Below, in pieces: positions 5,078 to 59,451 of a stretch of 64,000 bases of DNA (within the stretch, counting starts at the first letter, position 1; each line of letters begins with the position of its first letter). The position numbers and the translations under genes were made by a program. Location of the stretch: the IMG/VR virus record IMGVR_UViG_3300010244_000098; one strand, written 5' to 3'. The DNA is from a virus. The notes beneath the pieces were generated by a model. The model did no database searches. It was not told where the DNA came from and worked only from the letters and a program-made list of their open reading frames with translations.

Positions 5078-7063
5078 ATGAAAATCGAAAATTTTAAAAA
5101 CGATGACCCAAACGATGATTCAACAAACAATCCCAATGGACCATCAAACAATCAAGGGAACGGCCCACCTCCTATAAATGGCGGGCACGGTGTTTCTGCA
5201 AACATCATACCTCCTCCTGATGACCCACAGGACGACGAACGTCCTGAGGCTCTCATTAACTACAATGAAAAAGCGGATACGTTCGACAAGGCTTTGTTCC
5301 GCGATGAAGAAATCGACCGTATGATCACGATCTTATCTTCGAAAAAGAAAGCGAATGCCCTTCTTGTCGGTGACGCCGGCGTTGGAAAAACTCAAATTGT
5401 TGAGGAATTTGCCCGACGATACGAAATCGACCAGGACCCTGTTCTCATTGAACGTTTCGGAGATGACCTTCAGATTGAAGAACTTCGTATCTCCAGTTTA
5501 ATATCCGGAAAATCCGTCGTTGGTCAATTGGAGCAGGAAGTTGAAAAGGTGCTTAATTATACGAAAGAAACAAACAGTATTGTTTTTATCGACGAACTGC
5601 ACCGATTATTCTCTCCGGGACCGGCGCAAAATATCAGTCAAGACCTGAAACAGGCGCTGGGTCGTGGCGACGTTCAATTTATCGGCGCAACCACAACCCA
5701 GGAAGTTGAGGCCATACGGGAGGAATCGGCCTTTAATCGTCGTTGGAGCGATGTCATCGTTGATGAGTTAACACCGGAGCAGACCGAAACGATTCTTCGT
5801 CACGCTAAAAGCGGTTATGAAAAATACCATAATGTTCGCTATCCGGACCATCTTTTATCAACGATTGTCCGTTACGGTGATCTATACAAACGCTCCGGTT
5901 CACACAGACCGGATTCCGGACTGACACTCATGGACCGTGTTGGTGCTTCTGTAGGACTGGAAGGCATACAGCGCCGTCAATCCGACGACCCTGTTGTTCA
6001 ACAGTTCGTTCAAACGAACCCGGTACCCCGCGTATCTGAACAAGCCGTTAAAAAGATAGCGAAGTCGCTTGTTCAAAAGCCGGGTGCTGTGGAATCAACC
6101 GAATCGATAGAGGACATGTTGCAGAACACCATCATCGGACAAAAGGAAACAAAAACGAAAGTCACCGAAACAATCAAACGTATCAAATTAGGACTGTTAG
6201 ATCCTAAACGCCCTCACAGTTTCTTATTTGCCGGCCCCAGCGGTACAGGAAAAACAGAAACAGCCAAACAATTAGCGAACTATATGTACGGGGATAAGCG
6301 TGCAATGATTCGACTGGATATGAGTGAATTCTCTGAAAAAGCAAGCATTAACCGAATCAAGGGCTCTCCAGACGGCTACGTGGGGTCAACAAGCAAACAA
6401 CCTCTGCCTTTTGACAGTCTTGTCTCCAATCCACATCAGATTATTCTGCTTGATGAGATTGAAAAGGCTCATCCGGACGTTCGATTATTATTTATGCAGA
6501 TTTTAGACGAAGGGTTCTTCACGACAGAGCGACACGTTACTGTTGATTTTACGAAATCTATTATTATTGCAACAACAAACTCCGGCGTTGAAGAATTAAA
6601 CACAACGTCTATCGGTTTCAATCAGCCGGCACGAAAATCCAGTAAAGACATTCTTACAGCCTTAAAACAAGATTTTCCTGTGGAACTGTTGAACCGGTTC
6701 GAACATATCGTAGCCTTCCAAGGACTTAATATTGACGAATACAAACAGATTCTTGCTATCAAATACAATCAATTAATCACTGAAGCCAATAACAATCGTC
6801 CCGATTTAACCTTTAAACCTGCGTTCATTGATCCTTATGACGATGACGCCTTAGCTATGCTCAACCAGATTGCCGAAGACAGTTTCGATCCAAACTTAAA
6901 TGGTCGTCCCGCTGAGAGAACTATTCAGCGTCATATGGAAAACCACGTATTAGAACATATGAACGACACGAAACAAATCTTATTTGAGGATCCAAAACAA
7001 CAATACTCTGTCCAGCAATCTGCTCTACCTTCGCAACAAAACCAGTTAACCGACAATCAGTAA
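5078..7063 (+). CDS. Clp/Hsp100 ATPase no. 1: two AAA+ modules, no Clp-N or M domain, with an IGF loop
   Basis: GDAGVGKT, IVFIDELH, GATT; GPSGTGKT, RLDMSEF, GSPDGYVG, LLDEIEKAHPDV; SIGF after the second sensor-1. Confidence 0.88.
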   Translation: MKIENFKNDDPNDDSTNNPNGPSNNQGNGPPPINGGHGVSANIIPPPDDPQDDERPEALINYNEKADTFDKALFRDEEIDRMITILSSKKKANALLVGDAGVGKTQIVEEFARRYEIDQDPVLIERFGDDLQIEELRISSLISGKSVVGQLEQEVEKVLNYTKETNSIVFIDELHRLFSPGPAQNISQDLKQALGRGDVQFIGATTTQEVEAIREESAFNRRWSDVIVDELTPEQTETILRHAKSGYEKYHNVRYPDHLLSTIVRYGDLYKRSGSHRPDSGLTLMDRVGASVGLEGIQRRQSDDPVVQQFVQTNPVPRVSEQAVKKIAKSLVQKPGAVESTESIEDMLQNTIIGQKETKTKVTETIKRIKLGLLDPKRPHSFLFAGPSGTGKTETAKQLANYMYGDKRAMIRLDMSEFSEKASINRIKGSPDGYVGSTSKQPLPFDSLVSNPHQIILLDEIEKAHPDVRLLFMQILDEGFFTTERHVTVDFTKSIIIATTNSGVEELNTTSIGFNQPARKSSKDILTALKQDFPVELLNRFEHIVAFQGLNIDEYKQILAIKYNQLITEANNNRPDLTFKPAFIDPYDDDALAMLNQIAEDSFDPNLNGRPAERTIQRHMENHVLEHMNDTKQILFEDPKQQYSVQQSALPSQQNQLTDNQ

Positions 7064-33086: not shown

Positions 33087-34979
33087 TTAAATAACTAAGT
33101 CCCATAAAAAGACGACATTTTTTGTGTTCCTTCGTAGATAATAATACTTTGGATTCCCGTCTGTAATCTCTTTGACAAGCTGAGACGGCAATTCTCCCTG
33201 GACAGCACGGCTGTAATTGGAAATGTCCACGCTGGACATGGACCCTGTAATGACAGTATCTGCTGATTCAAAAAACGGGCTGTCAATCATTTTCTTCACG
33301 TTATTGAAGCTGATGACCAATTTGACACTCATGTCCTGCAGGAAGTTTCTTTGATTATTGATGTATTCCCAAACCTCGGGTGTAATCGACTCTGCTCCAT
33401 AAATATGAATCACGTCGTGTTCTTTGATCTCCCCAAGCATATAAGTAAAGATGTTGATAAATTGAGCCATCAAAACGTCAACCCCGTTTTGTCTCAGTTT
33501 CGCAAAGGGAAAAATCTTACGTGGCTTATTGCGAAGTTCCGAATCATCAAACGAGGTATGGGTGTCGAATAAATCGCCATAAGACGTCTGCATGACCGAT
33601 ACCATATTCACGAGTCGTTTGAACCCCGCTGCCAACTCTTTGTTCTGTCCGACAGTCGCTGTTCCTTCTGCATGGATACGGTACTGCGATGATAAATAAG
33701 GAATTAATTTGTTTAGACGAGGCACTTCCGTATAATCATCTAAACCAACCATACGCAGACGGTCCCGGTTCTCTTGCGGGTTTTCCGACCACATGCCTTG
33801 TTGAATATAAAAGCCGTCTAAGGCTTCATCAAAAAGCATTAAATCATCTTTGGTCATATCCTCGTTCAACTGTTGAACCATCAGTTTCAACTTGTTTTTA
33901 AGAATAGCGTACGCCGACAATTCATTCTCTACGTCACCAAACGCTTGAAGGGGGTTGATCATCCCTTTATCCATTTGAACTTTAGCTGTCGAGTTTTTCA
34001 AATCCGCTCCAATCTGAGTCGGATCTTCGTTGTTCAATACAAGTTCATAGACATTTCGTCCTTTGAGCAGTTCGTTTTGAGCGAAGAAAGTCTGCCATGC
34101 TGCTTGAGCACTGAAATCGTATGGTTGTTTCCGACCAGCCATGATTGCTTTTCCGTTCGCCCCAATCAACGTCACGTCTCCGGCTGTATCCGTATCGTAC
34201 ATGACAGGGGTTTGATTCACGTCCCCGACGGTCATTCCAATATAATCCCCGTTGGGGTCACGCCAGCCTTTTCCTACAAATGGATAAAACCCGGCGAACT
34301 CCACGGACGTGTATCCGTCGTGGTGGCCCAACTGCGATGTAGCAGGGCCTAACATGTTTCTAAAGTCATCCTGTTGTTGGCCGATGTTCTGTGTCAATCG
34401 AGCTGAACCAAAACGTGTTTGGTAACGGCGGGATAATTCGGTAATCGTCTCAGTCAATTCCTCTTTCGTTGGGGCAAACAATAAAATTTTCGATGTAACG
34501 TCCAGATAAGACGCGCCTCCGGCAATTTCGCTTGTTGACACCCGATGATCCACGGCTCGTTTCCGGCTACGGTCAGCCTCTAACGCCTGACGCGCCATTT
34601 TCGCTTCCTCATGAGCTGTCTCAGATACTTCTGAAGCTACGGCCGAATGAGACTCCACCCAGCTCTCAGGGCGTGTCTGAAAGGCTACAATGAGCCTTGC
34701 TGTAACAGACCTGTTTTTCGTTACCGGAATCAATCGACTTCCCCACATTGGAGGCAATTGATTCACTGCACCAGCATCTGCTATAAATGTCAGAATAGCC
34801 CCGTAACTCAATCCGGTTTGGAAATAGTCTGAATAAAATTTTAAATTTCCGAAAGGAGCGATTTCTTGAAGAAAGGAATCAGATAACTTCCCTTTCGGTT
34901 TTTTCTTTTGTTTCTCTTTTGATTTTCCCTGCGTTTGATCCTTTCCTTTTCCCAATCGTTGTTTGATGCCTTCTAACAC
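33087..34979 (-). CDS. VirB4/TraE-like conjugation ATPase homolog with degenerate Walker motifs
   Basis: VirB4-like layout (FYPFVGKGWRDPNGDYIG..NQTPVMYD, INPLQ, LFDTHTSFD, IFPFAKL) and location among transfer genes. The Walker A position reads LIGANGKAIMAGRK and the Walker B position VIHIYGAES. Confidence 0.65.
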   Translation of the reverse strand: MLEGIKQRLGKGKDQTQGKSKEKQKKKPKGKLSDSFLQEIAPFGNLKFYSDYFQTGLSYGAILTFIADAGAVNQLPPMWGSRLIPVTKNRSVTARLIVAFQTRPESWVESHSAVASEVSETAHEEAKMARQALEADRSRKRAVDHRVSTSEIAGGASYLDVTSKILLFAPTKEELTETITELSRRYQTRFGSARLTQNIGQQQDDFRNMLGPATSQLGHHDGYTSVEFAGFYPFVGKGWRDPNGDYIGMTVGDVNQTPVMYDTDTAGDVTLIGANGKAIMAGRKQPYDFSAQAAWQTFFAQNELLKGRNVYELVLNNEDPTQIGADLKNSTAKVQMDKGMINPLQAFGDVENELSAYAILKNKLKLMVQQLNEDMTKDDLMLFDEALDGFYIQQGMWSENPQENRDRLRMVGLDDYTEVPRLNKLIPYLSSQYRIHAEGTATVGQNKELAAGFKRLVNMVSVMQTSYGDLFDTHTSFDDSELRNKPRKIFPFAKLRQNGVDVLMAQFINIFTYMLGEIKEHDVIHIYGAESITPEVWEYINNQRNFLQDMSVKLVISFNNVKKMIDSPFFESADTVITGSMSSVDISNYSRAVQGELPSQLVKEITDGNPKYYYLRRNTKNVVFLWDLVI

Positions 34980-37911: not shown

Positions 37912-40900
37912 TTACTCGTTCTCGTATTCGTTGTCGTCACTGCCAAATAATTCATCAAATACATCCGGGGTGTTGCTCTGTTTCTCTCGAGGCGTGTTCA
38001 TTCGAACTCCTGCATCATGTTCTTTGGTATCCTTATGAACTGAGCCAAAGGGTGATGCGTTTGTAAGAGGTTCGGTCGATTGACGTTCCCTTGCGAACAT
38101 AGTTCCTCGTTCATTTGCATATCGAGTAGACGGTCGGTCCACGTTCGGTTGATCAGAATCTGTTTGGATAACGTTGGACCTTCCGGTTGACCCTTGACGT
38201 TCGTTGTTCACATACGTAGAACCTTTCGTCACGTCTTGATGTGTGTCATATGTTCCTGATTGATTTACCGTTGTGCTATCACGATTTTCACCAGAGAATG
38301 TTGACGTCACATCGCTATTTGTTGCATATCCATCAAGCGATTGATGAGTGCCTCGAACGTTTTGTTGTTGGTTCGGAGCATGAGTCTCAATATCGTCTTG
38401 GAATGTATTTGCTTCATTGATGTTTTCATTTACCAGGTCAGATCCTTCACGAACATATTGATTTGTCGATTTGTTTCCTACTGCACCGCTTTGTACAGTG
38501 TGGTCTGACGACATATCAACCTGGTCTGTTGCTTCAGATGTCGTATTGTATTGGTCTCCAAACTGACGTCCTGTTTCGCTAAGAGACCCAGCACCTGTCA
38601 TATGCCCAAGTGACTCGTTGTCTGTTGCTGAAGCACTTTGTTCGTTTGCTTCATTCATATCAACAGATCCTTGACCAATATCGCTCATGCGGTTCATTTC
38701 TCCGTGTGTGTGAATAGTTGAAGAATCACGACTGATACCGTTGGCATCGCTTGTTACGTCATAAGATTGATTATCTCCGTTAAGAGACGTATCGTAACCT
38801 GATGCACTCATATTTGGTGTTGTATCATAAGCAAGACCAGTATCCTGTGCTGATGAGCCTTCGGACTGAACGGATTCGTCCATATCGACAGATCCTTGAT
38901 CAACAACGCTCATACGATCCATGCGACCGTCTGTGTTCATTGTTGTTGAATCCTGCATGACTCCGTCGACATTCGACTCAGCCGTCACTGACTGGCCGTC
39001 TCCGTTAAGAGACGTATCGTAACCCGTCGTATTCATATCCGGTGTTACATTATAAGAAAAACCAGTATCCTGTGCTGATGAGCCTTCGGACTGAACGGAT
39101 TCGTCCATATCGACAGATCCTTGATCAACAACGCTCATACGATCCATGCGACCGTCTGTGTTCATTGTTGCTGAATCCTGCATAACTCCGTCGACATTCG
39201 ATTCAGTCGTTACTGACTGACCGTTTCTGTCGAAGTCCATGTCGGTATCTGTAACATCAAGATCGGACATTGTATCGTAACCAGACATCGTATCCTGTAC
39301 TGGCACGTCATCTAAGTGGCCTGACTGGTCCATTGGCCTGTCTACTTGGTCGTTTTGAATCTGAGACTCTTGAGAAATATCGCTTTGTCCAGTCACAGAC
39401 ACATCGTCTTGAATCTCTCCATTTTCTGAAAAGCTCGTGTCATACGATGACCCTTCTGCTTGATTATCTGATTCCATTTCAGCAAATGGATTGTCACTTG
39501 ACGTATCGTACATTCCTTCACTGTCCGCAACCATGTCTGAATCTGCATATGATACGTCTGCATCGCCACGGTTATCCGAGAAGACCGTTTCCTGATCGAT
39601 TGACTGATCTCCTTCCAATCCTACTTCGTCACGGAGCGTTTCGTCTGAAGATCCATCATTATTCGATAAGTGGCTCGCGGCTAATCCGGCTGCACCGACT
39701 GCTGTTCCTGTCGTCGTTGCTTCGTTTATATCCGGGATAGCACCTGTCTCATCTGTCATAGACTCATTGACGAAAGGATTCTCTTGATTTTCTTCATCAT
39801 GAACACTTATATCGCCGGCGTCCCTGTCGGATTCGCGGAATAGATCTTCATCATCCGCTGTTGAACTGTCTAACTCATTGGCGTATGTGTCATTATACGG
39901 CGCCATCGCTTCATCGTCATCAGCAAGCGTATTGTATCCGTCTTGGTCTGACGTATCCGCAAAAATATCTTGGTCTGCCATCTGTTGGTCATAATGCAAG
40001 CTTCCGCCATCTGCCCGAGCTTCTATAGACTCGTCTGCTCGGTTTTGTCCATCGCCAATATCATAAGCTCCTTGTTCGTCATCAGGGAATTGTTCCTGCA
40101 TATCTCCGGCTTCACGACTCATCGTCGCTGCCGCAAGTCCCGCATCCGCTTCGTTTATAGATTGATCTCCGGCATCTGACTCGATCAATTCATCCGCGCT
40201 GTTCATATCTCCACTGACAAGATATCCGTCATCATTCATACGCATAGCGCCTGCTTCACGTTCAGCGGAAATGTCTCCGTTGCTTGCATCGATTGTGTCA
40301 TCCGCTTCATTTTCCACGGCTTGATCGGCATTGGCTGTTTGATCCATTTGATCGCGATGTCCTTCATCCAAATCCATCTCTTGATCTTGACTTGCATGAA
40401 GGGTCTCTGTCTCTGTGATTTCTTCTTCGCTGTCCATATCGCTATAGTCGCCACCGAGAGCTTCTTCGCCCATAGTTTGACCATCTTCGTCCAGTTCTTG
40501 CTCTGCAGAAATATGTTCAAGGTTTCGACGTTCCCGTTCGCTTTCTTCTTCATCGTCACCAACACTGCCCATGGCTTCATCGGCATCTTGGAAATCTTGA
40601 GCATTTGAAATGTCACCCAATTCATTCGCGTTCGAATCATCGTCTGTTGTCGATGTTGACGAACCGCTCGTTGACGATTCTGTTGTCTCTGTTTCTTCTT
40701 CAGCGTCGTCACCGACACCGCCAAGTGCTTCTTCGCTATCTGTATGTCCTTGAGTCTGCCCTGATGAACCGCCTAACGCTGATTCATGAGCCAGTGATTC
40801 ATCAAAATCCTCTGTATCTCCGGTAGCCTGGCCACCGAGACTATCCCCAACAGCTCCCGCTGTGGATCCGGCCCCGACGGCCCCCATAACAGAACCGGCG

Positions 40901-43014
40901 AGCCCCATTTGGGACGCGTCACTGTCTGAGAAACTTCCGTACGAGGAATCTTCTGCGGACCCTTCGGACTCATCCGCTGTCACGTCCCCGTCGGCAATCG
41001 TGTCACCGCCACCGCCGTCTTTTCCTTTCAGATCGTTGGGACGAATTCCAGATATACGACTCGCCATATCAATAAAGAACTGATTTGATGATGACCCGAT
41101 TCGATTGTTCATAGAAAGAAACCCTTTGTACATCATAATGCCTAAAGCACCTGTGAGCACAGTCCCTAAAGCAATCTCACCAAGGGATTCTGTTCCTGCA
41201 CCGAACGGAAAAATCGTTCCAAAGGCCAACGGTCCTGTATCAATCATATGTAAAGGTGTCATAGTTCCACTACCTCCTGTCATTTCCATCAATGAAGGGA
41301 ATATTTCATGGATACCGGTTAACGCATCTCTAAATAACGCGATCATGGAGCGAGCAATAAATATTTGAATAAACATTGTAATCACGGCTCCAAACAGCAT
41401 AGACAATCCTCCGATAGAACCTAATCCGGCTCCGGAAGGGAACCAAAGGATTACGTTTTTAACCATATTATAAATAGCTCCTGCCATGAAAAAGTACATA
41501 TGGAACGCAAAAAATGTGACTAATCCAATGGTCAATAGCGTTTCGGTATATCTAAAGAACCCGCCGACGCCTCCGGGGATCGTATAATCTTTGTATTTGT
41601 ATTGAGCAGATAAGATCCCATCGTCTTCAATTTTCATCACACCGTCTTTGTTTGTATGTACACGGTAAAGAGCAAACAGCATTGAATTGTCTCCATATAT
41701 ATTTGACATATCCGAAGACGCTGTTGATGTTCCTCTCATCCAGCCATTAATCAGTTGTGTGGAATCAAAGTTCCAAAAATTACGAATATAGTCGATAGAT
41801 CCGTCCACTTCATCCATATTGATGCCACCGTCTTCGGTCACACCGGCAATGTCGTTCATTGCTTTTATATCGGACGATCGGATTGTAGACATACTCCCCG
41901 TACCTCCACCAGATCCGTTATAAATGTCTTCGACAGCTTTTAATGACTCTACATCATCGCTTTGTACGTTCCAAGACTGATTATCAATATCTACGCCATT
42001 TTCATCATAAGCATAGCCTGCTGTAACAAAACCTTTATAATCAAGAATGAGTTCAGAAACTTCTCCGTCTACACCGACATTGTCATCTATTCCCTGCATT
42101 CGGTCAGCGAACATGGTAATCATTCCTGACAACATAAATATCGCACCTGTCAGTGAGAATACAGAAACAAGCAATCGTTTCGTTGTCTCTCCCATGCTCC
42201 CCGCCATGCCTCGTCCTTTGCCGACGCGGAATCCAAGAACCGAAAGGCCCATTCCTGCGACAAATAAGAACAAGGCAACGATGTATCCAAACCAGCGACC
42301 AAAATTCAACCATTCTGAAAAATAGGCCATGACCGGGTTGGACGATTCACTGTACTGCCACTCGCTAAGTAATGTTTCTCCAGATGTGCTCTCTGGTAAT
42401 ATGTATTGAAAAACGTTAAAGGTGTCGAGCAGTTCATAAAGCAATTCTCCGAGCAATTGAGCAAAATGTCCAAGAACGGACGCGGCCATCAAAAGCGTAC
42501 CGCCTAAGTAACGACCTGCACTGTTTAGAATATTGCCCACAACATTGGTGTTCCAGTTATACGCAGAGTACACGCCGTACTGTGATCCCCAATACTGAAA
42601 AGCCATAAACATCTTGGCCGCATCTTCTCCTTTTTCTTCATTTCCTGACATTTCTCCAAACGGCGGGTCTCCTTCGGAACTCATAATGCCCATTCCGTTC
42701 GTTTCGTAGTTTCCATTTGCGTTTTCTGATGACGGAGTAATGTACCATTCCGTCCCTGTATATTCATCACTCGTTAAAACACTGGCTACTTCTTCAGATC
42801 CTGTAATATCTCGAAACAAGTTTCCGAGCGATTCCAGGGGGTGTTGCCACCAGCTTGCTTCAACGGTTGTTTCGTCCTGACCGGTATAGCTATGTACGAC
42901 GGACGATGTTGCTTGACCGATTGTTGCAAATAACGTGATGAACAATAACAAAATAATTATCGGCTTCATCCATGAAACCGTCAACCTCTCACGAGGCCGT
43001 GCTTGAACTTCCAA
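37912..43014 (-). CDS. Giant polytopic membrane protein, VirB6/TrbL-like, with a ~1000-aa acidic repeat tail
   Basis: Signal-like N-terminus; multiple TM helices in roughly aa 170-640; then a D/E/S/T-rich low-complexity tail. Located among transfer genes. Confidence 0.65.
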   Translation of the reverse strand: MEVQARPRERLTVSWMKPIIILLLFITLFATIGQATSSVVHSYTGQDETTVEASWWQHPLESLGNLFRDITGSEEVASVLTSDEYTGTEWYITPSSENANGNYETNGMGIMSSEGDPPFGEMSGNEEKGEDAAKMFMAFQYWGSQYGVYSAYNWNTNVVGNILNSAGRYLGGTLLMAASVLGHFAQLLGELLYELLDTFNVFQYILPESTSGETLLSEWQYSESSNPVMAYFSEWLNFGRWFGYIVALFLFVAGMGLSVLGFRVGKGRGMAGSMGETTKRLLVSVFSLTGAIFMLSGMITMFADRMQGIDDNVGVDGEVSELILDYKGFVTAGYAYDENGVDIDNQSWNVQSDDVESLKAVEDIYNGSGGGTGSMSTIRSSDIKAMNDIAGVTEDGGINMDEVDGSIDYIRNFWNFDSTQLINGWMRGTSTASSDMSNIYGDNSMLFALYRVHTNKDGVMKIEDDGILSAQYKYKDYTIPGGVGGFFRYTETLLTIGLVTFFAFHMYFFMAGAIYNMVKNVILWFPSGAGLGSIGGLSMLFGAVITMFIQIFIARSMIALFRDALTGIHEIFPSLMEMTGGSGTMTPLHMIDTGPLAFGTIFPFGAGTESLGEIALGTVLTGALGIMMYKGFLSMNNRIGSSSNQFFIDMASRISGIRPNDLKGKDGGGGDTIADGDVTADESEGSAEDSSYGSFSDSDASQMGLAGSVMGAVGAGSTAGAVGDSLGGQATGDTEDFDESLAHESALGGSSGQTQGHTDSEEALGGVGDDAEEETETTESSTSGSSTSTTDDDSNANELGDISNAQDFQDADEAMGSVGDDEEESERERRNLEHISAEQELDEDGQTMGEEALGGDYSDMDSEEEITETETLHASQDQEMDLDEGHRDQMDQTANADQAVENEADDTIDASNGDISAEREAGAMRMNDDGYLVSGDMNSADELIESDAGDQSINEADAGLAAATMSREAGDMQEQFPDDEQGAYDIGDGQNRADESIEARADGGSLHYDQQMADQDIFADTSDQDGYNTLADDDEAMAPYNDTYANELDSSTADDEDLFRESDRDAGDISVHDEENQENPFVNESMTDETGAIPDINEATTTGTAVGAAGLAASHLSNNDGSSDETLRDEVGLEGDQSIDQETVFSDNRGDADVSYADSDMVADSEGMYDTSSDNPFAEMESDNQAEGSSYDTSFSENGEIQDDVSVTGQSDISQESQIQNDQVDRPMDQSGHLDDVPVQDTMSGYDTMSDLDVTDTDMDFDRNGQSVTTESNVDGVMQDSATMNTDGRMDRMSVVDQGSVDMDESVQSEGSSAQDTGFSYNVTPDMNTTGYDTSLNGDGQSVTAESNVDGVMQDSTTMNTDGRMDRMSVVDQGSVDMDESVQSEGSSAQDTGLAYDTTPNMSASGYDTSLNGDNQSYDVTSDANGISRDSSTIHTHGEMNRMSDIGQGSVDMNEANEQSASATDNESLGHMTGAGSLSETGRQFGDQYNTTSEATDQVDMSSDHTVQSGAVGNKSTNQYVREGSDLVNENINEANTFQDDIETHAPNQQQNVRGTHQSLDGYATNSDVTSTFSGENRDSTTVNQSGTYDTHQDVTKGSTYVNNERQGSTGRSNVIQTDSDQPNVDRPSTRYANERGTMFARERQSTEPLTNASPFGSVHKDTKEHDAGVRMNTPREKQSNTPDVFDELFGSDDNEYENE
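38611..39240. repeat. In-frame 225-bp (75-aa) tandem repeat, about 3 copies
   Basis: ACAGATCCTTGA begins at 38663, 38888 and 39113; ACCAGTATCCTGTGCTGATGAG at 38836 and 39061; TCTCCGTTAAGAGACGTATCGTAACC at 38774 and 38999. Confidence 0.9.
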
Positions 43015-43086: not shown

Positions 43087-44979
43087 CTATGCCCGGAGTT
43101 TATGCTGATTTTCCAGCGTTAATTTTGTTAAACTGGCTCGCTTCATTGTTGTCGTCAGTTCACCAATGTATCCGTCACGGGTTACAAAAAGAGCCATTAA
43201 ATGAGAGTCCGTTGTGACTCTTGTCTTATTGTCGATAGCCATTTCACCGTCTACAACGATTCGAACCCACGCCAAAGCCCTGTTGTTATCCCGAGCTCCT
43301 TCTATCACGCGGGCAACCAACGGGGTTACTTCCCGTTCAATTCGTCGATTCATAGCACGGCCACCACCCGCACTTGTGTTGTTCAATGCACGGAAACGTT
43401 CTTTTACGAGATAGTCGGCCACCCGTTTTTCAAACGATAAATCGAATTGGAAATACGATTGGACCCGATCAACGACTGTATTTAATTCAATACGAGCAAT
43501 GTTTTCATATGTATCTTCTTCAAGAGGAGCAAAAGGAATCACTTCATCAAAACGACCTAAGAACTCCGGAGAAAATGTCTGTCCAAGTTGATCCCGGAGT
43601 AACATATCCATTTCTTCCACTTTTAAATTCTGACTGCGAAGGTCCTTAAATACGTCCGCCGCTCCGTTTGTGGTAATGGTCATGATAGCGTTGGTAAAAG
43701 TCACCTGTCGTCCATATTGGTCCGTTAACCGACCATCGTCCAGTATGGCTAATAACATGTGCATAATACTACGGTGTGCTTTTTCAATCTCATCTAATAA
43801 CACAACACTATAAGGGTATTTGCTGATATCTCTTGCAATTCGTTTCTGGAATACCCCCACATCATCGGCCATGGAGTATTCAGACATGTCGTAACGGATC
43901 AAGAATTTCTCATCTCCGAACATGCTCTCAGCCATAGCCTTCGCTAATTGGGTTTTTCCGACCCCGGTTGACCCAGCGAATAAGAAGTTCGCCAACGGCC
44001 GTGTATGGTCTTGAAGCCCGGTATTCGCAACAAACAGCCGGTCTTCGATCATTTGCAGGGCTGTTTCCTGTCCCATGACTTTTTTCTTAATGTGAGTCAT
44101 GACACTATCGATGTCGGTTTTCCAGTCTACATCAACCCCTGCTTTATCTTTCATGATACGAGCGATCAATTCGTGATCGACATACCCTTTTAAATGTTCT
44201 TTTGCAAAATCTCCCCGGTCGACACCAATGCGGGCACTACGGTAAAACCCAATCGCCGCATCGAGAATGTCGATTGATTTAGCCGGTTGAGCAAAAGCCG
44301 GAAGAAAACGATTTGTATAATCAACAATCTCGTCATAAATATTCGGTTGAACAATGTAAGGAACATTGCTCTTGCCCAGATACGTATGCGCCATGTTTTC
44401 CAGAATCGTTACAACCACGTCCGGAGAAGGCTCCGGCATATTAATAATCTGAGAACGACGAGTTAACGCCTGGTCCGATTTGATATATTTTTCGTATTCT
44501 TCGTCGGTTGTTGCACCGATGATTTTAATCATGCCTCGTTGCATTAGGGGTTTTAAAGCGTCCCCTGCGGCTGAACCGCTTGAACGGCTACTAGAGGTAA
44601 TCAAGTGCATTTCGTCAAGAAACACAATAGTGTCTCCTGTTTCCCCTTTCTTTCGCCGGGCATTATCGAAAGCTAATACGTCATTTGCCAGTCCTTTGAT
44701 CCGTTCGGCAAATTTGTTGTCGCCTTCTCCGCTCATTGTCGGCAGATCTACGTCGAAAATAAGCAACCCCTCCTCTTGATGAAGGGTTGCGTAACCTTCT
44801 ACGAAGCTCGTTTTCCCTACACCGGCAGGACCGAGAAGCACGACGTTGTTCATCTCTGGACGACGCAGGCTGGACTCTAGTGTTTCGTATTGACGTTCTC
44901 GTCCGACAGGCAGTCGGTCAACGGCTTCCATTTTTTCACCATATGTAGCTAAATAAGGAAATGATTCGTATGAAATCAT
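43087..44979 (-). CDS. Clp/Hsp100 ATPase no. 2: two AAA+ modules, pore loops altered or deleted
   Basis: GPAGVGKT, VFLDEMH, IGATTDEEY, ALTRR; GSTGVGKT, RYDMSEY, LLDEIEKAH, FSPEFLGRFD. No Clp-N domain, M domain or GYVG loop. Confidence 0.88.
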   Translation of the reverse strand: MISYESFPYLATYGEKMEAVDRLPVGRERQYETLESSLRRPEMNNVVLLGPAGVGKTSFVEGYATLHQEEGLLIFDVDLPTMSGEGDNKFAERIKGLANDVLAFDNARRKKGETGDTIVFLDEMHLITSSSRSSGSAAGDALKPLMQRGMIKIIGATTDEEYEKYIKSDQALTRRSQIINMPEPSPDVVVTILENMAHTYLGKSNVPYIVQPNIYDEIVDYTNRFLPAFAQPAKSIDILDAAIGFYRSARIGVDRGDFAKEHLKGYVDHELIARIMKDKAGVDVDWKTDIDSVMTHIKKKVMGQETALQMIEDRLFVANTGLQDHTRPLANFLFAGSTGVGKTQLAKAMAESMFGDEKFLIRYDMSEYSMADDVGVFQKRIARDISKYPYSVVLLDEIEKAHRSIMHMLLAILDDGRLTDQYGRQVTFTNAIMTITTNGAADVFKDLRSQNLKVEEMDMLLRDQLGQTFSPEFLGRFDEVIPFAPLEEDTYENIARIELNTVVDRVQSYFQFDLSFEKRVADYLVKERFRALNNTSAGGGRAMNRRIEREVTPLVARVIEGARDNNRALAWVRIVVDGEMAIDNKTRVTTDSHLMALFVTRDGYIGELTTTMKRASLTKLTLENQHKLRA

Positions 44980-45003
44980 ATGTTTTTCTCCTTTCTGCCC
45001 TTT

Positions 45004-45873
45004 TTACGGGGCGTAAATGCCTCGCAATAATTCCAGTGTCCGTTTGAAATCAGCACGGCGAACGGATTTAGCCATCCCGTTGATGACCTGCTGTTCAAAC
45101 CACTGGCATTGTTCACTCAGTGCCGTGCGGTCAGTCGTTGTGATTACAACGTATTGGGAAACCGTACGGAACCGTTCGTTGTCCGCCACTTGTTCACGGA
45201 TCACTCTTTCTTTCCTTGAAGCCAACGCGCGAAGATCTGTTAATGATTGTCCTGAAGTCCGTTCCCAGGCTCCCTGGACCTGCTCACCCAAATCTAAGGA
45301 CGTATGCTGTGTTGGAATACTCACAGACACGTTCGGTGGAAGTAATGACAACCAGCGCTCAAACGCGTCGATGACATAGTTTTTTTCATCTTCGAACAAC
45401 ATGTTGGAGGCGTGACCGTCTACTTCATAAGCACGGCCAACCCAACCGTTGACAAAGGTAATGATTCCTTGATTATCAATTTTTCGAATTTGAAGTACAT
45501 CACTGACTTCTGCCACATCGGCATCTCCTCTCGTACTGACTATCCGACCATGAGTATCTAACCAATACCCGATCGTCGGCCAGAGCATTTTATACCCTTC
45601 ATCCCCGTTCTCTTGAGGAATGATCAACAAAGCAACAAACAGTTCCCAACCGATTAGCATAATAGCTAATCCTAGCCAACTGCCTTCTGAAATCCCAGTG
45701 TTCATATACATGAACATCGGAACAACAAGCCCCAGAAGTGCCAGCATAATCACAGTGGAAATCTTAATCGGCCGTTTGAAAGGCCCCTGTCCCTTCTTGC
45801 CGGTTAAAATAACGGGCGCTTGTAAGCGAGAGACGTTTAAAGAATGCGGGATACGATATGATTTTTTAGCCAC
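45004..45873 (-). CDS. PrgI/VirB3-like conjugation membrane protein
   Basis: Two TM helices near the N-terminus followed by a soluble domain; first gene of the Clp2/VirB6-like block. Family call is tentative. Confidence 0.5.
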   Translation of the reverse strand: MAKKSYRIPHSLNVSRLQAPVILTGKKGQGPFKRPIKISTVIMLALLGLVVPMFMYMNTGISEGSWLGLAIMLIGWELFVALLIIPQENGDEGYKMLWPTIGYWLDTHGRIVSTRGDADVAEVSDVLQIRKIDNQGIITFVNGWVGRAYEVDGHASNMLFEDEKNYVIDAFERWLSLLPPNVSVSIPTQHTSLDLGEQVQGAWERTSGQSLTDLRALASRKERVIREQVADNERFRTVSQYVVITTTDRTALSEQCQWFEQQVINGMAKSVRRADFKRTLELLRGIYAP

Positions 45874-50308: not shown

Positions 50309-53062
50309 CTAATCCCCGAGTTCTTGTTCTGCACCCGGGTCATTGTAGCTCATTTCATAATACGTTGAACTATATCTCGGAAGCAAGTCCCTCTCGCGCT
50401 CTTTAAAGAGTTGACGAACATACGCTCTGTCCCGTTCTCCTTCGGTTATCTTCACTTCCGGTTCAGGCACGGCACGGATCAGACGGGCTTCCCGGGCGCG
50501 CTGGAGTTCTTCGTTTTCTTCTTCCTCCTCCAACTCTTGTTGTCGAAGGATTTCGTATTGACGATTTAATCGGATCAATTCGTCTGTTAAATTAAATGGT
50601 TCGTCTAAGTCGTGCTCTCTCGTCCATTCTACTGTTTCCTCTTTTTCACGTTCCACAATCGGAGGGGATATCTCCAAAAACTCCCGGTTCATGTCGACAG
50701 CGTCGTCGTGAGCAAGCGTATATGAAGCGTGTTCTTTTATGTAATCATCCTCGTGACGACGCAGGGGTCTGGGCAGTTCTCCGCCTTCTTCAGCAACAGC
50801 GATAAAATCCAAAGCTTCACTGACCCCGTTGGCTTCATTTTGAAAATAAGTGTACTCCGGATAGTCTTCGGTATTCTGCCCGGACCGGTCCAGATAAGAT
50901 AAGGCATTTCGAAAAGCTTTCTGCCTCGATTCGTGCATGGATCGATTCGCCTCTAAAACTCGAGGCGATACCCGTCTTGACTGATCCCGGTCTAAATCAT
51001 AAATTGTCCGGGCAATATCGTACCCTTTCACTTCGTTGAAGCGTTCTTTATCAACAGCAGGAGTTTCTTTCTGCTCCCGAATCTGCATTTGGGATTCCAA
51101 TCCGTCGTAAACACGACTCATCGCCCGAACTTTTCCGTCGTACTTCACTAGTTGATCTAACGACTTGTCTCCAACGCCTTCACTCTCCAATCGTTCTATA
51201 ACCGGAGCGGACAGCCGTTCAGAGACCGACAGATCTCGATTGGTTGCATAGGTCTTAGGCTCCCGCGGAATGGCTCTGACACTGTGTTTCACACGGTTAT
51301 GCACCCGGTCTACCCATTCTTCTTTGTCTAATCCGTCCCCCGTAGGATATTTCTCACGGCGGTAATGAAGATACGGTTTCGGTTGTTGATCCATTAAGTA
51401 TTGATATTTATCCCGGACTCCGCCGTGATAGGTTGATTCCGTATCGTATAAATCCCGCATAGCTCCGGATTCTTTAACAACCTCGCCTTTATCAGCCAAC
51501 ATGTCATAATCATCACGGAGGGACGTATAGTAATCCGTTTTCTCTTTTGCTTCTTTCCACCGTTTGGGATAATCCCGAATACGTTTTTCCATTTGAAGCA
51601 AACCGTTGGACTCTGACTTTTCCTGACCTAAATCGTCGGCGATGTGTTCTTTTAGAGATTCATCATCCAAAAGGGCCAGCTGTAAGCCTTTTGGCGTCAA
51701 CGATCCTTGTACAACCCGTCGCTCCCGGTTGTCCATAGATGATTCCTGCTCTTTTTCAAAAGCCTTTTTATCCCCTACAACACGTAAGGGTTTCATCGAT
51801 GTATACAGTCCGTTGACCAATTCTTCTTTCAAACGATCGTTAACAACGTCTCGAAGACGGTCTCGTTCTTTTTCGTAGCTTTCTGACTCCGTGTCCGGAG
51901 CTTTTGTTTCAACATAGGTATCCACGGCTTCTTCAAACGAATCATACCCCACGACATTTCGGTGCGTATCGAGCATGTGGTCAACGTATTGACCGGATAA
52001 GCGGTTCGCTTCTTTCATATCTTGACGGTTGCTTTTAAACCGCCAGTTCTTTTGCTGACTCCGCAGATCTTTGTCATACGCCGCTCCGTCGTATTCGGGA
52101 TTTTTCTCTCCTTTAGGCAGAGCATCATAGATCCGGACCAACTGCTGGCTGAGAGCCGTATGTTCAAGAAACAACTGCGTACTGTTCTGTTTCACCAGCT
52201 GATGGTGGGCGGATAAATTATTCGTGAACGGTTTAGCCCCTTTTGTTCGTGTCAATTCCTGGTCCACCCCGTCTTTGAACGACCGCATAACGCGCTGATG
52301 TAGTTTCCCGCGCTCTCCCTGGTGTTCGTGGTTGGAAGGAGTATCTTCAACAAGGAATAAATCATTATATGTATGTGCCGGGTTCTTTTTTGACTTGTAC
52401 GGTTGTTTCTTAGACCCACGCACCATGCGTTCCTCAGGGACATTGTTCATGTCCGTGGTTTCAATCAGCGTTAAATGGACGTGAACGTTAGCCGTATCCA
52501 CCTGGATTGCTGCCGTCCATTCCGGTTCTACGAAATGAGCCTTTTCGGTCATTCGTTCCATGCCTTTTGTAACTGCACGGCGCAGTTTCAATTGGTCCAC
52601 TTGGCCATGATACTTTCCTTCGTCCTGGTTATTTTCTACGTCGTCCATATCTTCAGGAACAACCTTTTTGCGTTTTAAATAATCATGCGAAAAACTGACC
52701 ACCGGCGTTATCAATGTATGCCCGTCTTCCAGAGCCCGTTCTGTTTTTTGTACAGAATCCGTAAACTGGTCCCGAGTGTACACCAATCCTTGACTGCCAA
52801 ACAGCCGTGCCGATTGATCGGTTACTTTCTGGTCTTCATGGTATAAGGTTTGTTCGTCGCCCAATTCCTCAATCACTTGTTCCGATTGGGCATTCCGTTG
52901 GTCATATGCTTCTTCATACGCCCGTAACGTCTGTTGGGGCGTGTAAGGCGCTAATTCTTCCGTGGCGTCCAACCTGGATGTGTATCGGCGTATGTAGTTT
53001 CCCGGTGTTCCTCCGGCTTTCGCTCCGAACTGACTGACCATCACGATATCGCTGCTCGCCAT
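50309..53062 (-). CDS. Conjugative relaxase, MobL/MobP2-like
   Basis: N-terminal TPGNYIRRYTSRLDATE (candidate catalytic Tyr), TPVVSFSHDYL, and HUH motif WTAAIQVDTANVHVHLTL; long helical C-terminal region. Confidence 0.8.
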   Translation of the reverse strand: MASSDIVMVSQFGAKAGGTPGNYIRRYTSRLDATEELAPYTPQQTLRAYEEAYDQRNAQSEQVIEELGDEQTLYHEDQKVTDQSARLFGSQGLVYTRDQFTDSVQKTERALEDGHTLITPVVSFSHDYLKRKKVVPEDMDDVENNQDEGKYHGQVDQLKLRRAVTKGMERMTEKAHFVEPEWTAAIQVDTANVHVHLTLIETTDMNNVPEERMVRGSKKQPYKSKKNPAHTYNDLFLVEDTPSNHEHQGERGKLHQRVMRSFKDGVDQELTRTKGAKPFTNNLSAHHQLVKQNSTQLFLEHTALSQQLVRIYDALPKGEKNPEYDGAAYDKDLRSQQKNWRFKSNRQDMKEANRLSGQYVDHMLDTHRNVVGYDSFEEAVDTYVETKAPDTESESYEKERDRLRDVVNDRLKEELVNGLYTSMKPLRVVGDKKAFEKEQESSMDNRERRVVQGSLTPKGLQLALLDDESLKEHIADDLGQEKSESNGLLQMEKRIRDYPKRWKEAKEKTDYYTSLRDDYDMLADKGEVVKESGAMRDLYDTESTYHGGVRDKYQYLMDQQPKPYLHYRREKYPTGDGLDKEEWVDRVHNRVKHSVRAIPREPKTYATNRDLSVSERLSAPVIERLESEGVGDKSLDQLVKYDGKVRAMSRVYDGLESQMQIREQKETPAVDKERFNEVKGYDIARTIYDLDRDQSRRVSPRVLEANRSMHESRQKAFRNALSYLDRSGQNTEDYPEYTYFQNEANGVSEALDFIAVAEEGGELPRPLRRHEDDYIKEHASYTLAHDDAVDMNREFLEISPPIVEREKEETVEWTREHDLDEPFNLTDELIRLNRQYEILRQQELEEEEENEELQRAREARLIRAVPEPEVKITEGERDRAYVRQLFKERERDLLPRYSSTYYEMSYNDPGAEQELGD

Positions 53063-56780: not shown

Positions 56781-56812
56781 AAAAAGACAAGCCGCAAAGG
56801 GCTTGTCTTTTT
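56781..56812. terminator. Bidirectional intrinsic terminator
   Basis: Perfect 13-bp AAAAAGACAAGCC-gcaaag-GGCTTGTCTTTTT between convergent genes. Confidence 0.88.
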
Positions 56813-59451
56813 TATTTGGCCTCAGCCGTTTTCGCTTGGAATCGAACCCGGCCGTCCGAACCGATATCCATCACGACAGGGTGTCCTTGAACGACGTCGC
56901 CTGACAGAACCGCCTTGGAGAACGGAACCTCAATTTGTTGTTGGATAAACCGGTTGAATGGCCGTGCCCCGTAACGGGGGTCATAGGCTTGTTGGGCAAT
57001 CCATTGAACAAGTTGTTTCGTATACTGAATGCGGTACCTTTGTTGAGCCATTCGTTCAACAAAGCGGTGCAATTGTTTATTAACGATCATACCCGATACG
57101 TTAGCGCCCAGTGGATTAAAGAGCAACTGCTCATCGATCCGGTTAAGAAACTCCGGTCGGAAATGACCTTCCACAATAGTTCGGACGTGGTTCCGTGTTG
57201 AATCGGCATATCCTCGGCCGTTCAACGCCTGTTGATCCTGCATCATCTGCGGAGAACCCAAGTTGCTGGTCAAAATAACCAATGTCTGCGTAAAATCAAC
57301 AATGTTACCCTTTCCGTCCGTCACTCGACCATCGTCAAGGAGTTGGAGCAAGGAGTCAAAAATGGCCGTGTGCGCTTTTTCAACCTCGTCGAACAAAATG
57401 ACGCTGTAAGGTTGTTGACGCACGGCTTCAGTCAATTGCCCGCCCTGATCGTAACCGACATAGCCGGGTGGTGCTCCGATCAACCGGTTCACACTGTGTT
57501 TTTCCATATATTCTGACATGTCAATTCGAATCATTGCGTCTTCTGTATCAAACAACTGACTGGCCAAAGCCTTTGCCAATTCTGTTTTTCCTGTCCCTGA
57601 AGGGCCGAGGAATAAAAAAGAACCAAGAGGCCGGTCATCGCTTTGGACGCCCACACGGCTTCGAATCACAGTGTTGGACACCGCTTCAACGGCTTCTTCC
57701 TGACCAATCACCCGTTGTTTGAGCACTTTATCCATATCCAACAATTTTGATTTGTCGTCGGCCATCAGTTTATTCAGCGGAATGCCGGTTTTTGAAGCAA
57801 TCACGCTGGCCACTTCTTCTTCACCCACGCTTTCAGACATTAACGCCTTTCCGCCGGTCTGCTGATCAAACGACGTTGTCATCTGGTCTAACCGACGTTC
57901 TAATTCAGGAATAATCTCCGACTGCAGATTAGCCACTTTATCTTTATCATAGGCTTCTTTCGCCGACGTCAATCGTTTCCGGGCAACAAGCAGTTTATCC
58001 CTGACGTCACTGATTGATTTGAGAGCCTGCTTTTCTTTCTTCCAGCGCTCATTTAATTGTCGTCCTTCGGCTTTAGCCTTGTCGAGTTTTTGAGCGACTT
58101 CCTGTGCCTGCTCCCGGCTCACCGGGTCTGTTTCGTTTTTCAAGGCGTCCAGACGCACACCGAGTTGGAGCACCGTGTTCTTTAACTCATTCAACGGTTC
58201 GGGAACCGAATCCTTTTGGACATTCACTTCCGAACAGGCTTGGTCGATCATGTCGATCGCCTTATCCGGCAAATACCGGTCTCCGATGTATCGGTCGGAC
58301 AGTTCAACCGCTGACACTAACGCTCTATCATGAATACGTACGTGGTGAAACTCCTCAAATCCATCTTTTAAACCACGCAGTATGTGTGTTGCGTCTTCTA
58401 AACTCGGTTCAGCCACACGAACAGGTTGAAACCGTCGGGCCAACGCCGTGTCCGGTTCGATGTATTTTTTGTATTCGTCGTTTGTTGTGGCCCCGATAAT
58501 GGCGACCTCACCCCGTGCCAGTTCCGGTTTTAACGCATTACTGACATCACCCGAGCCGCTCGCTCCGGCTCCGACAATAGTGTGGACTTCATCAATCAAT
58601 AGAACAATTTGTCCATTGCCTGATTTCACTTCTTTAACGATGTTCTGCAGGCGCTTTTGAAGGTCCCCCTGATACTTCGCCCCGGACAGCAAACTTTGCA
58701 TATCTAAAGAAATAATCTGCTTGCCTAACAATTTATCGGGCACCTGTCCTTTGACGATTCGTTGAGCCAGTCCTTCAGCAAGCGCCGTTTTTCCGACCCC
58801 GGCCTCTCCAACAAGAACAGGATTGTTCTTCGTTCGCTGGCTCAAGGTGTTCACCATGAGGCCGATTTCTCTATCCCGGCCGATAATTGGGTCCATTCGT
58901 CCCCGTTTCGCCTCCGCCGTCAAGTTCTTCCCGAATTGTTTCAAATAAGGAAATACCCGCTCGGCTTCACTTTGTATCGTCCCCCCGCTTGCACGGATTT
59001 GACGCAATTTCTGCTCCGCCTGCTGATAATCGGCGTACTGTCTCAGCCACTGGGCCGACGCATTGTTCTTCGCACCAAACAATGTAACCAACACCACTTC
59101 ACTGGACAAATAAGAATCTCCGTAGTGACCTGCTAAACGGGCTGATTCCTCCAGTAAAGCAGACATCTCTTTGCTTACTTTGCTTTTCGATGTTCCTTTT
59201 TTCTTTTTGAGTTTTTGAAGAAACGACGGTTCTTTCTTGTCCCCATTATCGGTCCCTTCTGCCTTCACATAGGCTTTGAGTTCATTCAAAGGAACATTCA
59301 AACTCGCCAGGAATTGAGCTCCTAACGACCCCTGTTGAAGCATACCCCACAGGAGATGATGCACGTCGACGGGGAGGTCGCCTCGTTGAACAGCCCATTT
59401 GTGACCGCTCTTAATGGCCCCTTTCAAAGCGCTTGTTGTTTGGATCCCCAT
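56812..59451 (-). CDS. clpB: ClpB-type disaggregase (Clp/Hsp100 ATPase no. 3)
   Basis: Clp-N repeats; MDPIIGRD, KNNPVLVGEAGVGKT, GAKYQG, IDEVH, ALARRFQ, YLPDKAID; M-domain coiled coil; LGPSGTGKT, IGAPPGYVGY, LFDEVEKAH, FRPEFLNRID, YGARP. Confidence 0.93.
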   Translation of the reverse strand: MGIQTTSALKGAIKSGHKWAVQRGDLPVDVHHLLWGMLQQGSLGAQFLASLNVPLNELKAYVKAEGTDNGDKKEPSFLQKLKKKKGTSKSKVSKEMSALLEESARLAGHYGDSYLSSEVVLVTLFGAKNNASAQWLRQYADYQQAEQKLRQIRASGGTIQSEAERVFPYLKQFGKNLTAEAKRGRMDPIIGRDREIGLMVNTLSQRTKNNPVLVGEAGVGKTALAEGLAQRIVKGQVPDKLLGKQIISLDMQSLLSGAKYQGDLQKRLQNIVKEVKSGNGQIVLLIDEVHTIVGAGASGSGDVSNALKPELARGEVAIIGATTNDEYKKYIEPDTALARRFQPVRVAEPSLEDATHILRGLKDGFEEFHHVRIHDRALVSAVELSDRYIGDRYLPDKAIDMIDQACSEVNVQKDSVPEPLNELKNTVLQLGVRLDALKNETDPVSREQAQEVAQKLDKAKAEGRQLNERWKKEKQALKSISDVRDKLLVARKRLTSAKEAYDKDKVANLQSEIIPELERRLDQMTTSFDQQTGGKALMSESVGEEEVASVIASKTGIPLNKLMADDKSKLLDMDKVLKQRVIGQEEAVEAVSNTVIRSRVGVQSDDRPLGSFLFLGPSGTGKTELAKALASQLFDTEDAMIRIDMSEYMEKHSVNRLIGAPPGYVGYDQGGQLTEAVRQQPYSVILFDEVEKAHTAIFDSLLQLLDDGRVTDGKGNIVDFTQTLVILTSNLGSPQMMQDQQALNGRGYADSTRNHVRTIVEGHFRPEFLNRIDEQLLFNPLGANVSGMIVNKQLHRFVERMAQQRYRIQYTKQLVQWIAQQAYDPRYGARPFNRFIQQQIEVPFSKAVLSGDVVQGHPVVMDIGSDGRVRFQAKTAEAK

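Follow-up and report, generated by a model that had tools for sequence, protein, structure and literature searches.

Results

A two-ring Clp-type ATPase without pore loops

The window analysed here, a 64,000-nucleotide stretch of viral DNA (IMG/VR record IMGVR_UViG_3300010244_000098), encodes on its minus strand a two-ring ATPase of the Clp/Hsp100 type, referred to below as Clp-short. The protein has two AAA+ modules (D1 and D2), keeps the catalytic residues of both and has lost the pore-loop-1 element of each. The gene, its flanking signal, its C-terminal part and the ClpB-like protein of the same window that served as comparator are located as follows.

43087..44979, minus strand: Clp-short, two-ring Clp/Hsp100-type AAA+ ATPase of 630 amino acids (aa), defined by open reading frame, Pfam, NCBIfam and AlphaFold2 (AF2) model
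44988..44993, minus strand: Shine-Dalgarno sequence AAGGAG, 8 nucleotides (nt) ahead of the Clp-short ATG
43090..43287, minus strand: C-terminal beta-rich stretch of Clp-short, residues 565-630, after the ClpB_D2-small region
56812..59451, minus strand: ClpB-like comparator, 879 aa, with N-domain, AAA_lid_9 and intact KYQG and GYVG loops (LIGAPPGYVG)

The ATG of Clp-short lies at position 44979, 24 nt behind the stop codon of the upstream gene (45004-45006). Pfam analysis revealed two complete AAA+ modules, with matches to PF07724 (AAA_2, 5e-41, residues 327-480) and PF10431 (ClpB_D2-small, 4e-5, residues 486-559) in D2 and generic AAA matches only in D1; no Pfam match to Clp_N or AAA_lid_9 was obtained for Clp-short. 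Its N-terminus corresponds exactly to the linker that precedes D1 in ClpB, and the N-domain is therefore absent rather than diverged. The AF2 model, built on 46 family members (mean predicted local distance difference test, pLDDT, 89.6; predicted template modelling score, pTM, 0.79), contains no M-domain coiled-coil insertion, and inspection by eye of the Clp-short sequence and of the family consensus revealed no ClpP-docking IGF/IGL motif ([IVL]G[FL]) between sensor-1 and the arginine finger. A Foldseek search with the model returned ClpC/ClpB hexamer subunits as top matches (E about 1e-43, template modelling score about 0.7, ~620 columns), and a phmmer search against the PDB returned ClpB at 2e-68. 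The NCBIfam models of ClpV (TIGR03345, 306 bits, cut-off 885), ClpB (TIGR03346, 298.5 bits, cut-off 1232) and ClpA (288 bits, cut-off 993) scored Clp-short far below their thresholds, and none of the VirB4, VirB11 or VirD4 models of Pfam and NCBIfam matched it.

Clp-short thus resembles ClpB/Hsp104 and ClpC (E. coli ClpB, PDB 4d2q and 6qs4; S. aureus ClpC, 9gi1) in having two AAA+ modules, the second of AAA_2 type and with a D2-small domain; the Walker, arginine-finger and sensor-2 residues and the fold of the subunit are also shared. Unlike these proteins it has no N-domain, no M-domain and no pore-loop tyrosines, its last ~35 residues reach beyond the ClpB C-terminus, and it is encoded in transfer operons, whereas ClpB and ClpC belong to stress regulons. 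The C-terminal stretch (residues 565-630) is partly conserved, with G578 invariant and K585 near-invariant; it is the only family-specific element of Clp-short and a candidate docking surface.

Hsp100 proteins translocate polypeptides via a staircase of pore-loop tyrosines. The corresponding regions of Clp-short were compared by alignment to the ClpB-like protein of the window.

44707..44736, minus strand: D1 pore-loop-1 position, residues 82-91, MSGEGDNKFA, recorded as without an aromatic residue
43810..43890, minus strand: D2 segment DMSEY...PY, residues 364-390, with the 12-residue GYVG deletion

In D1, Clp-short reads MSGEGDNKFAERIK where the comparator has SGAKYQGDLQKRL; the pore-loop tyrosine is therefore gone, and the loop is hypervariable across the family in length and sequence alike. 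The secondary loop of D1 (residues 124-136) is kept and was modelled with low confidence. In D2, exactly 12 residues are missing, with the junction F377/Q378 at positions 43846-43851. F377, near-invariant in the family, aligns to the buried leucine of the ClpB motif RLIG and not to the pore tyrosine. The AF2 model comprises a strand (residues 360-364), a short turn and a single continuous helix (373-387), followed by the Walker B strand (391-396); the hairpin is cleanly excised in this model, with helix alpha-2 of ClpB fused to the helix ahead of the loop.

The loss was assessed in 85 family and 33 canonical Clp proteins obtained from one search of 5.8 billion proteins, the family being represented by the ~85 clusters that outscored canonical Clp. 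The spacing from DMSEY to the D2 Walker B was exactly 23 residues in 85/85 family members versus 35 in 33/33 canonical proteins; the identical spacing is therefore not due to chance and represents a family trait rather than decay. A KYRG-like motif was present in 0/85 versus 33/33 sequences, and a GYVG-like motif was matched by regular expression in two of the 85 family members versus all 33 canonical ones. Contig searches with the family alignment, which used generic Walker B/P-loop patterns and serve only as controls, retrieved canonical ClpC/ClpB genes or phage ClpA-like ones and nothing else from genome and viral contigs, with a canonical spacing of 34-39 residues in 79/79 genome loci and 80/80 viral loci in which the motif was found.

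A first reading of the window from its letters alone (the sequence-only reading) had proposed that the LIGAPPGYVG loop present in the ClpB at 56812 is deleted from D2, that SGEGDNKF stands in D1 in place of G.KYRG, and that the protein is probably not a threading unfoldase. The exact 12-residue gap, the presence of the quoted D1 string together with the lack of any KYRG-like motif in the 85 members, and the loss of both pore-loop-1 elements family-wide with a continuous helix 373-387 in the model all agree with it. From alignment and model we infer that Clp-short would be unable to thread polypeptide by pore-loop tyrosines.

A second gene for a Clp protein without N-domain (Clp 1) is located at 5078-7063 of the window. 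Its product keeps the D2 loop (SPDGYVG), has GKSVVG without an aromatic residue in D1 and branches on a very long branch among canonical Clp proteins. Jumbo-phage ClpA-like proteins were considered as family members on account of their similar length and were rejected; the one that was checked (phage A4) keeps both pore loops.

Conserved catalytic sites

The nucleotide-binding motifs of both modules were identified at the following positions.

44809..44832, minus strand: D1 Walker A GPAGVGKT, residues 50-57 (G53, G55 and K56 invariant in the family)
44608..44625, minus strand: D1 Walker B FLDEMH, residues 119-124 (D122 and E123 invariant)
43951..43974, minus strand: D2 Walker A GSTGVGKT, residues 336-343 (G339, G341 and K342 invariant)
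43786..43806, minus strand: D2 Walker B VVLLDEI (LLDEIEK), residues 392-398 (D396 and E397 invariant)

Both Walker A/B pairs are intact, as the sequence-only reading had stated. Across 46 aligned members, reaching down to about 32% identity with Clp-short, K56, D122/E123, the sensor-1 residues T157/T158 and the arginine finger R175 were invariant in D1, as were K342, D396/E397, N438 (sensor-1), the arginine finger R476 and the sensor-2 residue R541 in D2. Since the trans-acting arginine fingers are invariant, ring assembly and ATP hydrolysis appear to be retained, polypeptide gripping not. With the catalytic residues of both modules kept, Clp-short is predicted to be an active ring-forming AAA+ ATPase.

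The transfer operon of the window

The operon that contains Clp-short is long, runs on the minus strand (about 19312-54704) and begins with a ribbon-helix-helix gene followed by a MobL relaxase gene. Its relevant members are:

50309..53062, minus strand: MobL-family relaxase, 917 aa, near the operon start
45004..45873, minus strand: 289-aa protein with two transmembrane helices, directly upstream of Clp-short
37912..43014, minus strand: polytopic membrane protein of 1700 aa, directly downstream of Clp-short
33087..34979, minus strand: VirB4-like protein without P-loop
26662..32964, minus strand: fused beta/beta'-type RNA polymerase, 2100 aa

Clp-short is the only Walker A-bearing protein in this operon. 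A profile of six type IV coupling proteins (T4CPs) detected no coupling protein in the 64-kb window, beyond which the element extends. No type VI secretion genes were found near Clp-short, its neighbours being MobL, VirB4-like and membrane proteins.

The 289-aa protein matched the N-terminal part of the VirB4 model NF045975 only weakly (E 3.8e-6, far below the cut-off), and a homologue (28% identity) is encoded directly upstream of the VirB4-like gene in the Staphylococcus capitis plasmid pAYP1020. The 1700-aa protein has about six transmembrane segments within its first 600 residues; its C-terminal ~1000 residues are, judged by eye, acidic, of low complexity and rich in Asp, Glu, Ser, Thr and Gln, and align with relatives at chance level only. 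Over its N-terminal membrane part, the 1700-aa protein shares homology with the product of the gene next after the ATPase in pAYP1020 (E 1e-9); the match to the counterpart at the same position in the Enterococcus plasmid pELF2 is weak (E 9e-4). An assignment to the pLS20_p028-type membrane protein of the Lactobacillaceae plasmid pMP118 was unsupported by BLASTP. The sequence-only reading had described the two neighbours as PrgI/VirB3-like and VirB6-like; both are membrane proteins, the weak upstream match being to the N-terminal part of a VirB4 model, and VirB6-like would be a putative label for the downstream protein.

Homologues, inteins and phylogeny

The family was defined by the 23-residue DMSEY-Walker B spacing, a length of about 580-660 aa without inteins, and a location in a transfer cluster that also encodes a VirB4 homologue without P-loop, all of which apply to Clp-short. 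Its closest annotated relatives share 27-35% identity, are plasmid-borne and are annotated as 'AAA family ATPase' or 'ATP-dependent Clp protease ATP-binding subunit'; a megablast search of the window operon against plasmids gave no match. About 30 family members are longer (850-1020 aa; e.g. sequences P0007, P0017, P0026, P0044 and P0045), and many of these have Pfam matches to LAGLIDADG inteins and lack one contiguous P-loop. In the Streptomyces copy (1431 aa, L170:16435-20730) neither P-loop is contiguous, which suggests that inteins were inserted in both Walker A sites.

Eleven gene contexts were inspected, comprising the window and homologues from annotated plasmids, and a transfer cluster surrounded the Clp gene in all of them (Staphylococcus, Lactococcus, Enterococcus, Gordonia, Streptomyces, Lactobacillaceae and the window). 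In pAYP1020 and an S. aureus plasmid the order is mobL, small gene, ATPase and 1342-aa membrane protein, with a T4CP, a 290-aa protein, the VirB4-like gene and the fused RNA polymerase further on. Gordonia pGKT2 and the Streptomyces plasmid have the order mobL, ATPase, T4CP, polymerase; the order mobL, small gene, Clp-short was recorded for Staphylococcus and Streptomyces. Lactococcus cremoris pJM1A encodes a T4CP, a MobL-type relaxase, the ATPase, a CpaF/VirB11-family protein and a VirB4-like protein in this order. The giant membrane protein is encoded directly 3' of the ATPase in the window, Staphylococcus and pELF2. MobL was annotated in 9 of the 11 elements, the exceptions being the pELF-type plasmids pELF2 and pVB6171_p2, in which none was found; among 14 control genomes only one had it. 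The fused polymerase occurred in 6/6 MobL-bearing elements with a core-family Clp-short and was likewise not found in the pELF-type plasmids.

In PLSDB, the ATPase was present at at least 90% identity in about 106 Enterococcus plasmids, among them the linear vancomycin-resistance plasmid pELF2, and further records were from Staphylococcus, Lactococcus, Streptomyces, Rhodococcus and Gordonia. No family member was detected at E<=1e-135 in 401 Bacilli species genomes, with three candidates scored per genome, a result that indicates rarity at best.

Three of the eleven contexts are those of Clp genes on Lactobacillaceae plasmids:

L083:19902-21731: Clp gene of pMP118
L002:3260-5092: Clp gene of the L. 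argentoratensis plasmid
L168:3003-4796: Clp gene of pLB925A04

Here the order is topoisomerase gene, hypothetical gene (~240 aa product) and Clp gene, with T4CP and VirB4 genes further on. Like Clp-short, these proteins are Clp-derived, have kept the catalytic sites and have lost GYVG: 12 residues are deleted in pMP118, and six in L. brevis and L. argentoratensis, where RLIG is left in place. They differ in forming a separate clade, in the length of the deletion (6 or 12 residues), in their position after a topoisomerase gene and in their P-loop-positive VirB4. In a FastTree phylogeny (Shimodaira-Hasegawa-like support, midpoint rooting only), a fully supported branch set Clp-short and the copies from Staphylococcus, actinobacteria and Lactococcus apart from the canonical side, on which the three Lactobacillaceae proteins formed a clade of their own. 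The GYVG loss in this lineage may be convergent; its separate origin is provisional, since the tree was rooted at the midpoint and no topology test was applied.

Most of these plasmids were typed as non-mobilizable by MOB-suite (NZ_CP007602.1, NZ_CP150776.1, NZ_CP016746.2, NZ_CP109461.1 and NZ_AP022343.1). All of the five except pELF2 encode MobL, each has transfer genes and a VirB4-like gene, and T4CP genes are present in the 'non-mobilizable' pAYP1020, pJM1A and Streptomyces plasmids. The typing thus appears to have a blind spot for this transfer system.

Constant partners of the ATPase

ATPase, membrane protein and VirB4-like module are encoded together in one cluster of pELF2 (NZ_AP022343.1, 31075-42999; L172:9960-21884). 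Its order at 31-43 kb is a 649-aa ATPase, a 1213-aa membrane protein, two small genes, a 718-aa protein, a 288-aa protein and the VirB4-like protein, the same gene order as in the window, and the ATPase carries the same 12-residue D2 deletion. Neither MobL nor the fused RNA polymerase was found in pELF2. Retention of the ATPase alongside membrane protein and dead VirB4, in a plasmid where neither of these two was found, ties the ATPase to the membrane apparatus; its constant partners are the membrane/VirB4-like module and not the relaxase, polymerase or topoisomerase.

A VirB4 homologue without P-loop was present in 8/8 elements that carry the core Clp-short family. The VirB4-like proteins of the window, S. 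capitis, S. aureus, Gordonia, Streptomyces, Lactococcus and pELF2 were extracted, and none of them contained a Walker A motif, with no [AG]x4GK anywhere in their sequences. The eighth element, pVB6171_p2, encodes a close VirB4-like homologue with the same 22% identity to the window protein as that of pELF2. Homologues of the window protein were present in 173 PLSDB records (Enterococcus 97, Staphylococcus 7, Lactococcus 5, Streptomyces, Rhodococcus and Gordonia 1 each, also Macrococcus); Lactiplantibacillus (45) and Ligilactobacillus (13) contributed partial matches that covered about 50-56% of the query among the matches listed. The full-length distribution mirrors that of the core ATPase family (97 Enterococcus records versus about 106).

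The GK[ST] pattern misses the Walker A motif of VirD4-type T4CPs ([ST]R[SA]GKG). The T4CP of pAYP1020 (L087:1168-5028) has RGNKG in place of R[SA]GKG, with a Gly-to-Asn exchange directly before the Walker A lysine, and its ATP binding may be impaired.

Discussion

On balance, and by a small measure only, we favour the view that Clp-short is a non-threading ring ATPase that energises, assembles or gates an apparatus related to type IV secretion systems (T4SSs). It is likewise only slightly more probable than not that the protein is vertically conserved and dedicated to one distinct T4SS-like apparatus, found on plasmids of Gram-positive bacteria and actinobacteria. The sequence-only reading had suggested a place in the secretion apparatus, and the search for homologues unlinked to T4SS genes yielded transfer clusters in all eleven contexts. 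ATP-driven ring movements at the cytoplasmic face would bring about assembly, gating or energising of the apparatus or the hand-over of substrates, with the ring probably docked on the dead VirB4 or on the giant membrane protein. To our knowledge, VirB4 counts as the obligatory ATPase of type IV secretion and as its sole ubiquitous component, and VirB11 homologues are usually absent from Gram-positive transfer clusters. The Clp ring would take the job that is usual for VirB4 and, in Gram-negatives, for VirB11. The co-occurrence with P-loop-less VirB4 in 8/8 elements and the retention of both in pELF-type plasmids speak for the earlier proposal that the ATPase compensates for a Walker-less VirB4, though not as the sole reason, given the sister lineage of the Lactobacillaceae. 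Possible, and clearly more tentative, is the fuller scheme in which the energising role of VirB4 was passed to a Clp double ring with a loop-free, widened channel beneath a dead VirB4 scaffold, in a class of T4SS-like machines of Gram-positive bacteria and actinobacteria that includes the pELF type. A speculative order of events would be that the Clp protein was recruited first, a state represented by the Lactobacillaceae with their active VirB4, and that the ATP site of VirB4 was lost later.

The likeness to VirB4 and VirB11 would be one of role, that of a hexameric cytoplasmic ATPase at the channel base powering assembly or transfer. VirB4 and VirB11 have RecA/FtsK-like or traffic-ATPase folds, Clp-short is a classical AAA+ protein, and there is no sequence or fold relationship between them. 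ClpV/TssH of type VI secretion is likewise a two-ring Clp-type ATPase recruited to a secretion machine, and the N-domain of ClpV binds the sheath while the protein threads VipB. Because ClpV keeps this sheath-binding N-domain and functional pore loops, both of which Clp-short lacks, the comparison drawn in the sequence-only reading holds as an analogy between secretion machines only; Clp-short, which scores 306 bits where the ClpV model requires 885 and has no N-domain, is not a member of the ClpV family.

Several observations weigh against the favoured assignment of Clp-short to the T4SS-like apparatus. The VirB4 of pMP118, the partner of the sister Clp lineage, has an intact P-loop (GNAGMGKS), and compensation can therefore not be the only reason why such ATPases join T4SSs. 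Most elements encode T4CPs with an intact RSGKG-type Walker A, and in pJM1A a CpaF/VirB11-family ATPase is encoded two genes downstream of Clp-short (L169:20707-22440), so that in some elements energy could also come from an ATPase other than the Clp protein. In the only genetic study of transfer of the linear plasmid pELF2, the essential genes, coding for an FtsK-like TraD, TraC and TraG, are located at 71-80 kb in another operon, the 31-43 kb cluster lies outside it, and Clp or AAA proteins are not mentioned (PMC13492992).

The lost pore loops bear on the alternative that Clp-short unfolds protein substrates of the T4SS by a non-canonical grip, provided by the secondary loop of D1 (residues 124-136) or by a partner adaptor. 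It is established that protein substrates of T4SSs must be unfolded for transfer, the operon encodes large candidate substrates (the 917-aa relaxase and the 2100-aa polymerase), the D1 loop-2 region is kept (at low model confidence), and the catalytic sites are intact. We nevertheless regard this function as unlikely: D2, named as the main threading motor of ClpB in the title of PDB entry 6qs4, is without any pore-loop hairpin, in D1 the loop is hypervariable and its pore-loop tyrosine is missing, and the gene persists in pELF-type plasmids, in which no relaxase or polymerase was found. The last point also counts against a role on the DNA side, in which Clp-short would remodel the relaxosome or chaperone the polymerase, topoisomerase or primase during DNA processing or establishment. 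The position of the gene behind mobL and a small gene in Staphylococcus and Streptomyces, the topoisomerase-hypothetical-Clp order in the Lactobacillaceae plasmids and the fused polymerase in all six MobL-bearing core-family elements would fit such a role; yet pELF2 and pVB6171_p2 keep Clp-short, membrane protein and VirB4-like protein without a detectable MobL or polymerase, and the neighbours of Clp-short in the window are membrane proteins rather than DNA enzymes, which makes a DNA-side role quite improbable.

Plasmids often carry Clp-type stress genes, many ClpB/ClpK-type matches were obtained from plasmids of Klebsiella, Listeria and others, and the window itself contains two further Clp-type genes, so that Clp-short might be cargo for host proteostasis, either a stress Clp like the plasmid-borne ClpL and ClpK or a 'poison' subunit of host ClpC/ClpB rings. 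This is very hard to reconcile with a gene that lies inside a transfer operon behind a strong ribosome-binding site, keeps synteny with apparatus genes across two phyla, encodes neither the N- nor the M-domain required by stress Clp proteins, forms a deep clade of its own and was not found among the 401 Bacilli species genomes (three candidates scored per genome). The loss of four functional elements of a canonical Clp could also mark a decayed pseudo-enzyme serving as a structural scaffold only, to which we give very little credence: no catalytic residue of either ring varies among members as distant as about 32% identity, and many members have inteins in or near their P-loops. Inteins typically home to essential conserved sites.

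Literature searches retrieved no published description of this pore-loop-less Clp family. New here are the deletion of fixed length as a family signature, its 8/8 co-occurrence with a P-loop-less VirB4, the pELF2 comparison that separates an apparatus role from a DNA-processing role, and the second lineage in the Lactobacillaceae. The gene cluster is relevant as part of pELF-type vancomycin-resistance plasmids of E. faecium, where it lies outside the published transfer genetics (PMC13492992). As MOB-suite types most of the plasmids concerned as non-mobilizable, their transfer potential may be underestimated. If the favoured assignment of Clp-short as a non-threading ATPase of the T4SS-like apparatus is true, a P-loop-less VirB4 together with a pore-loop-less Clp ATPase lineage would represent a new way to power a conjugation machine, and Clp-short would be a natural Clp/Hsp100 ring that functions without substrate threading.

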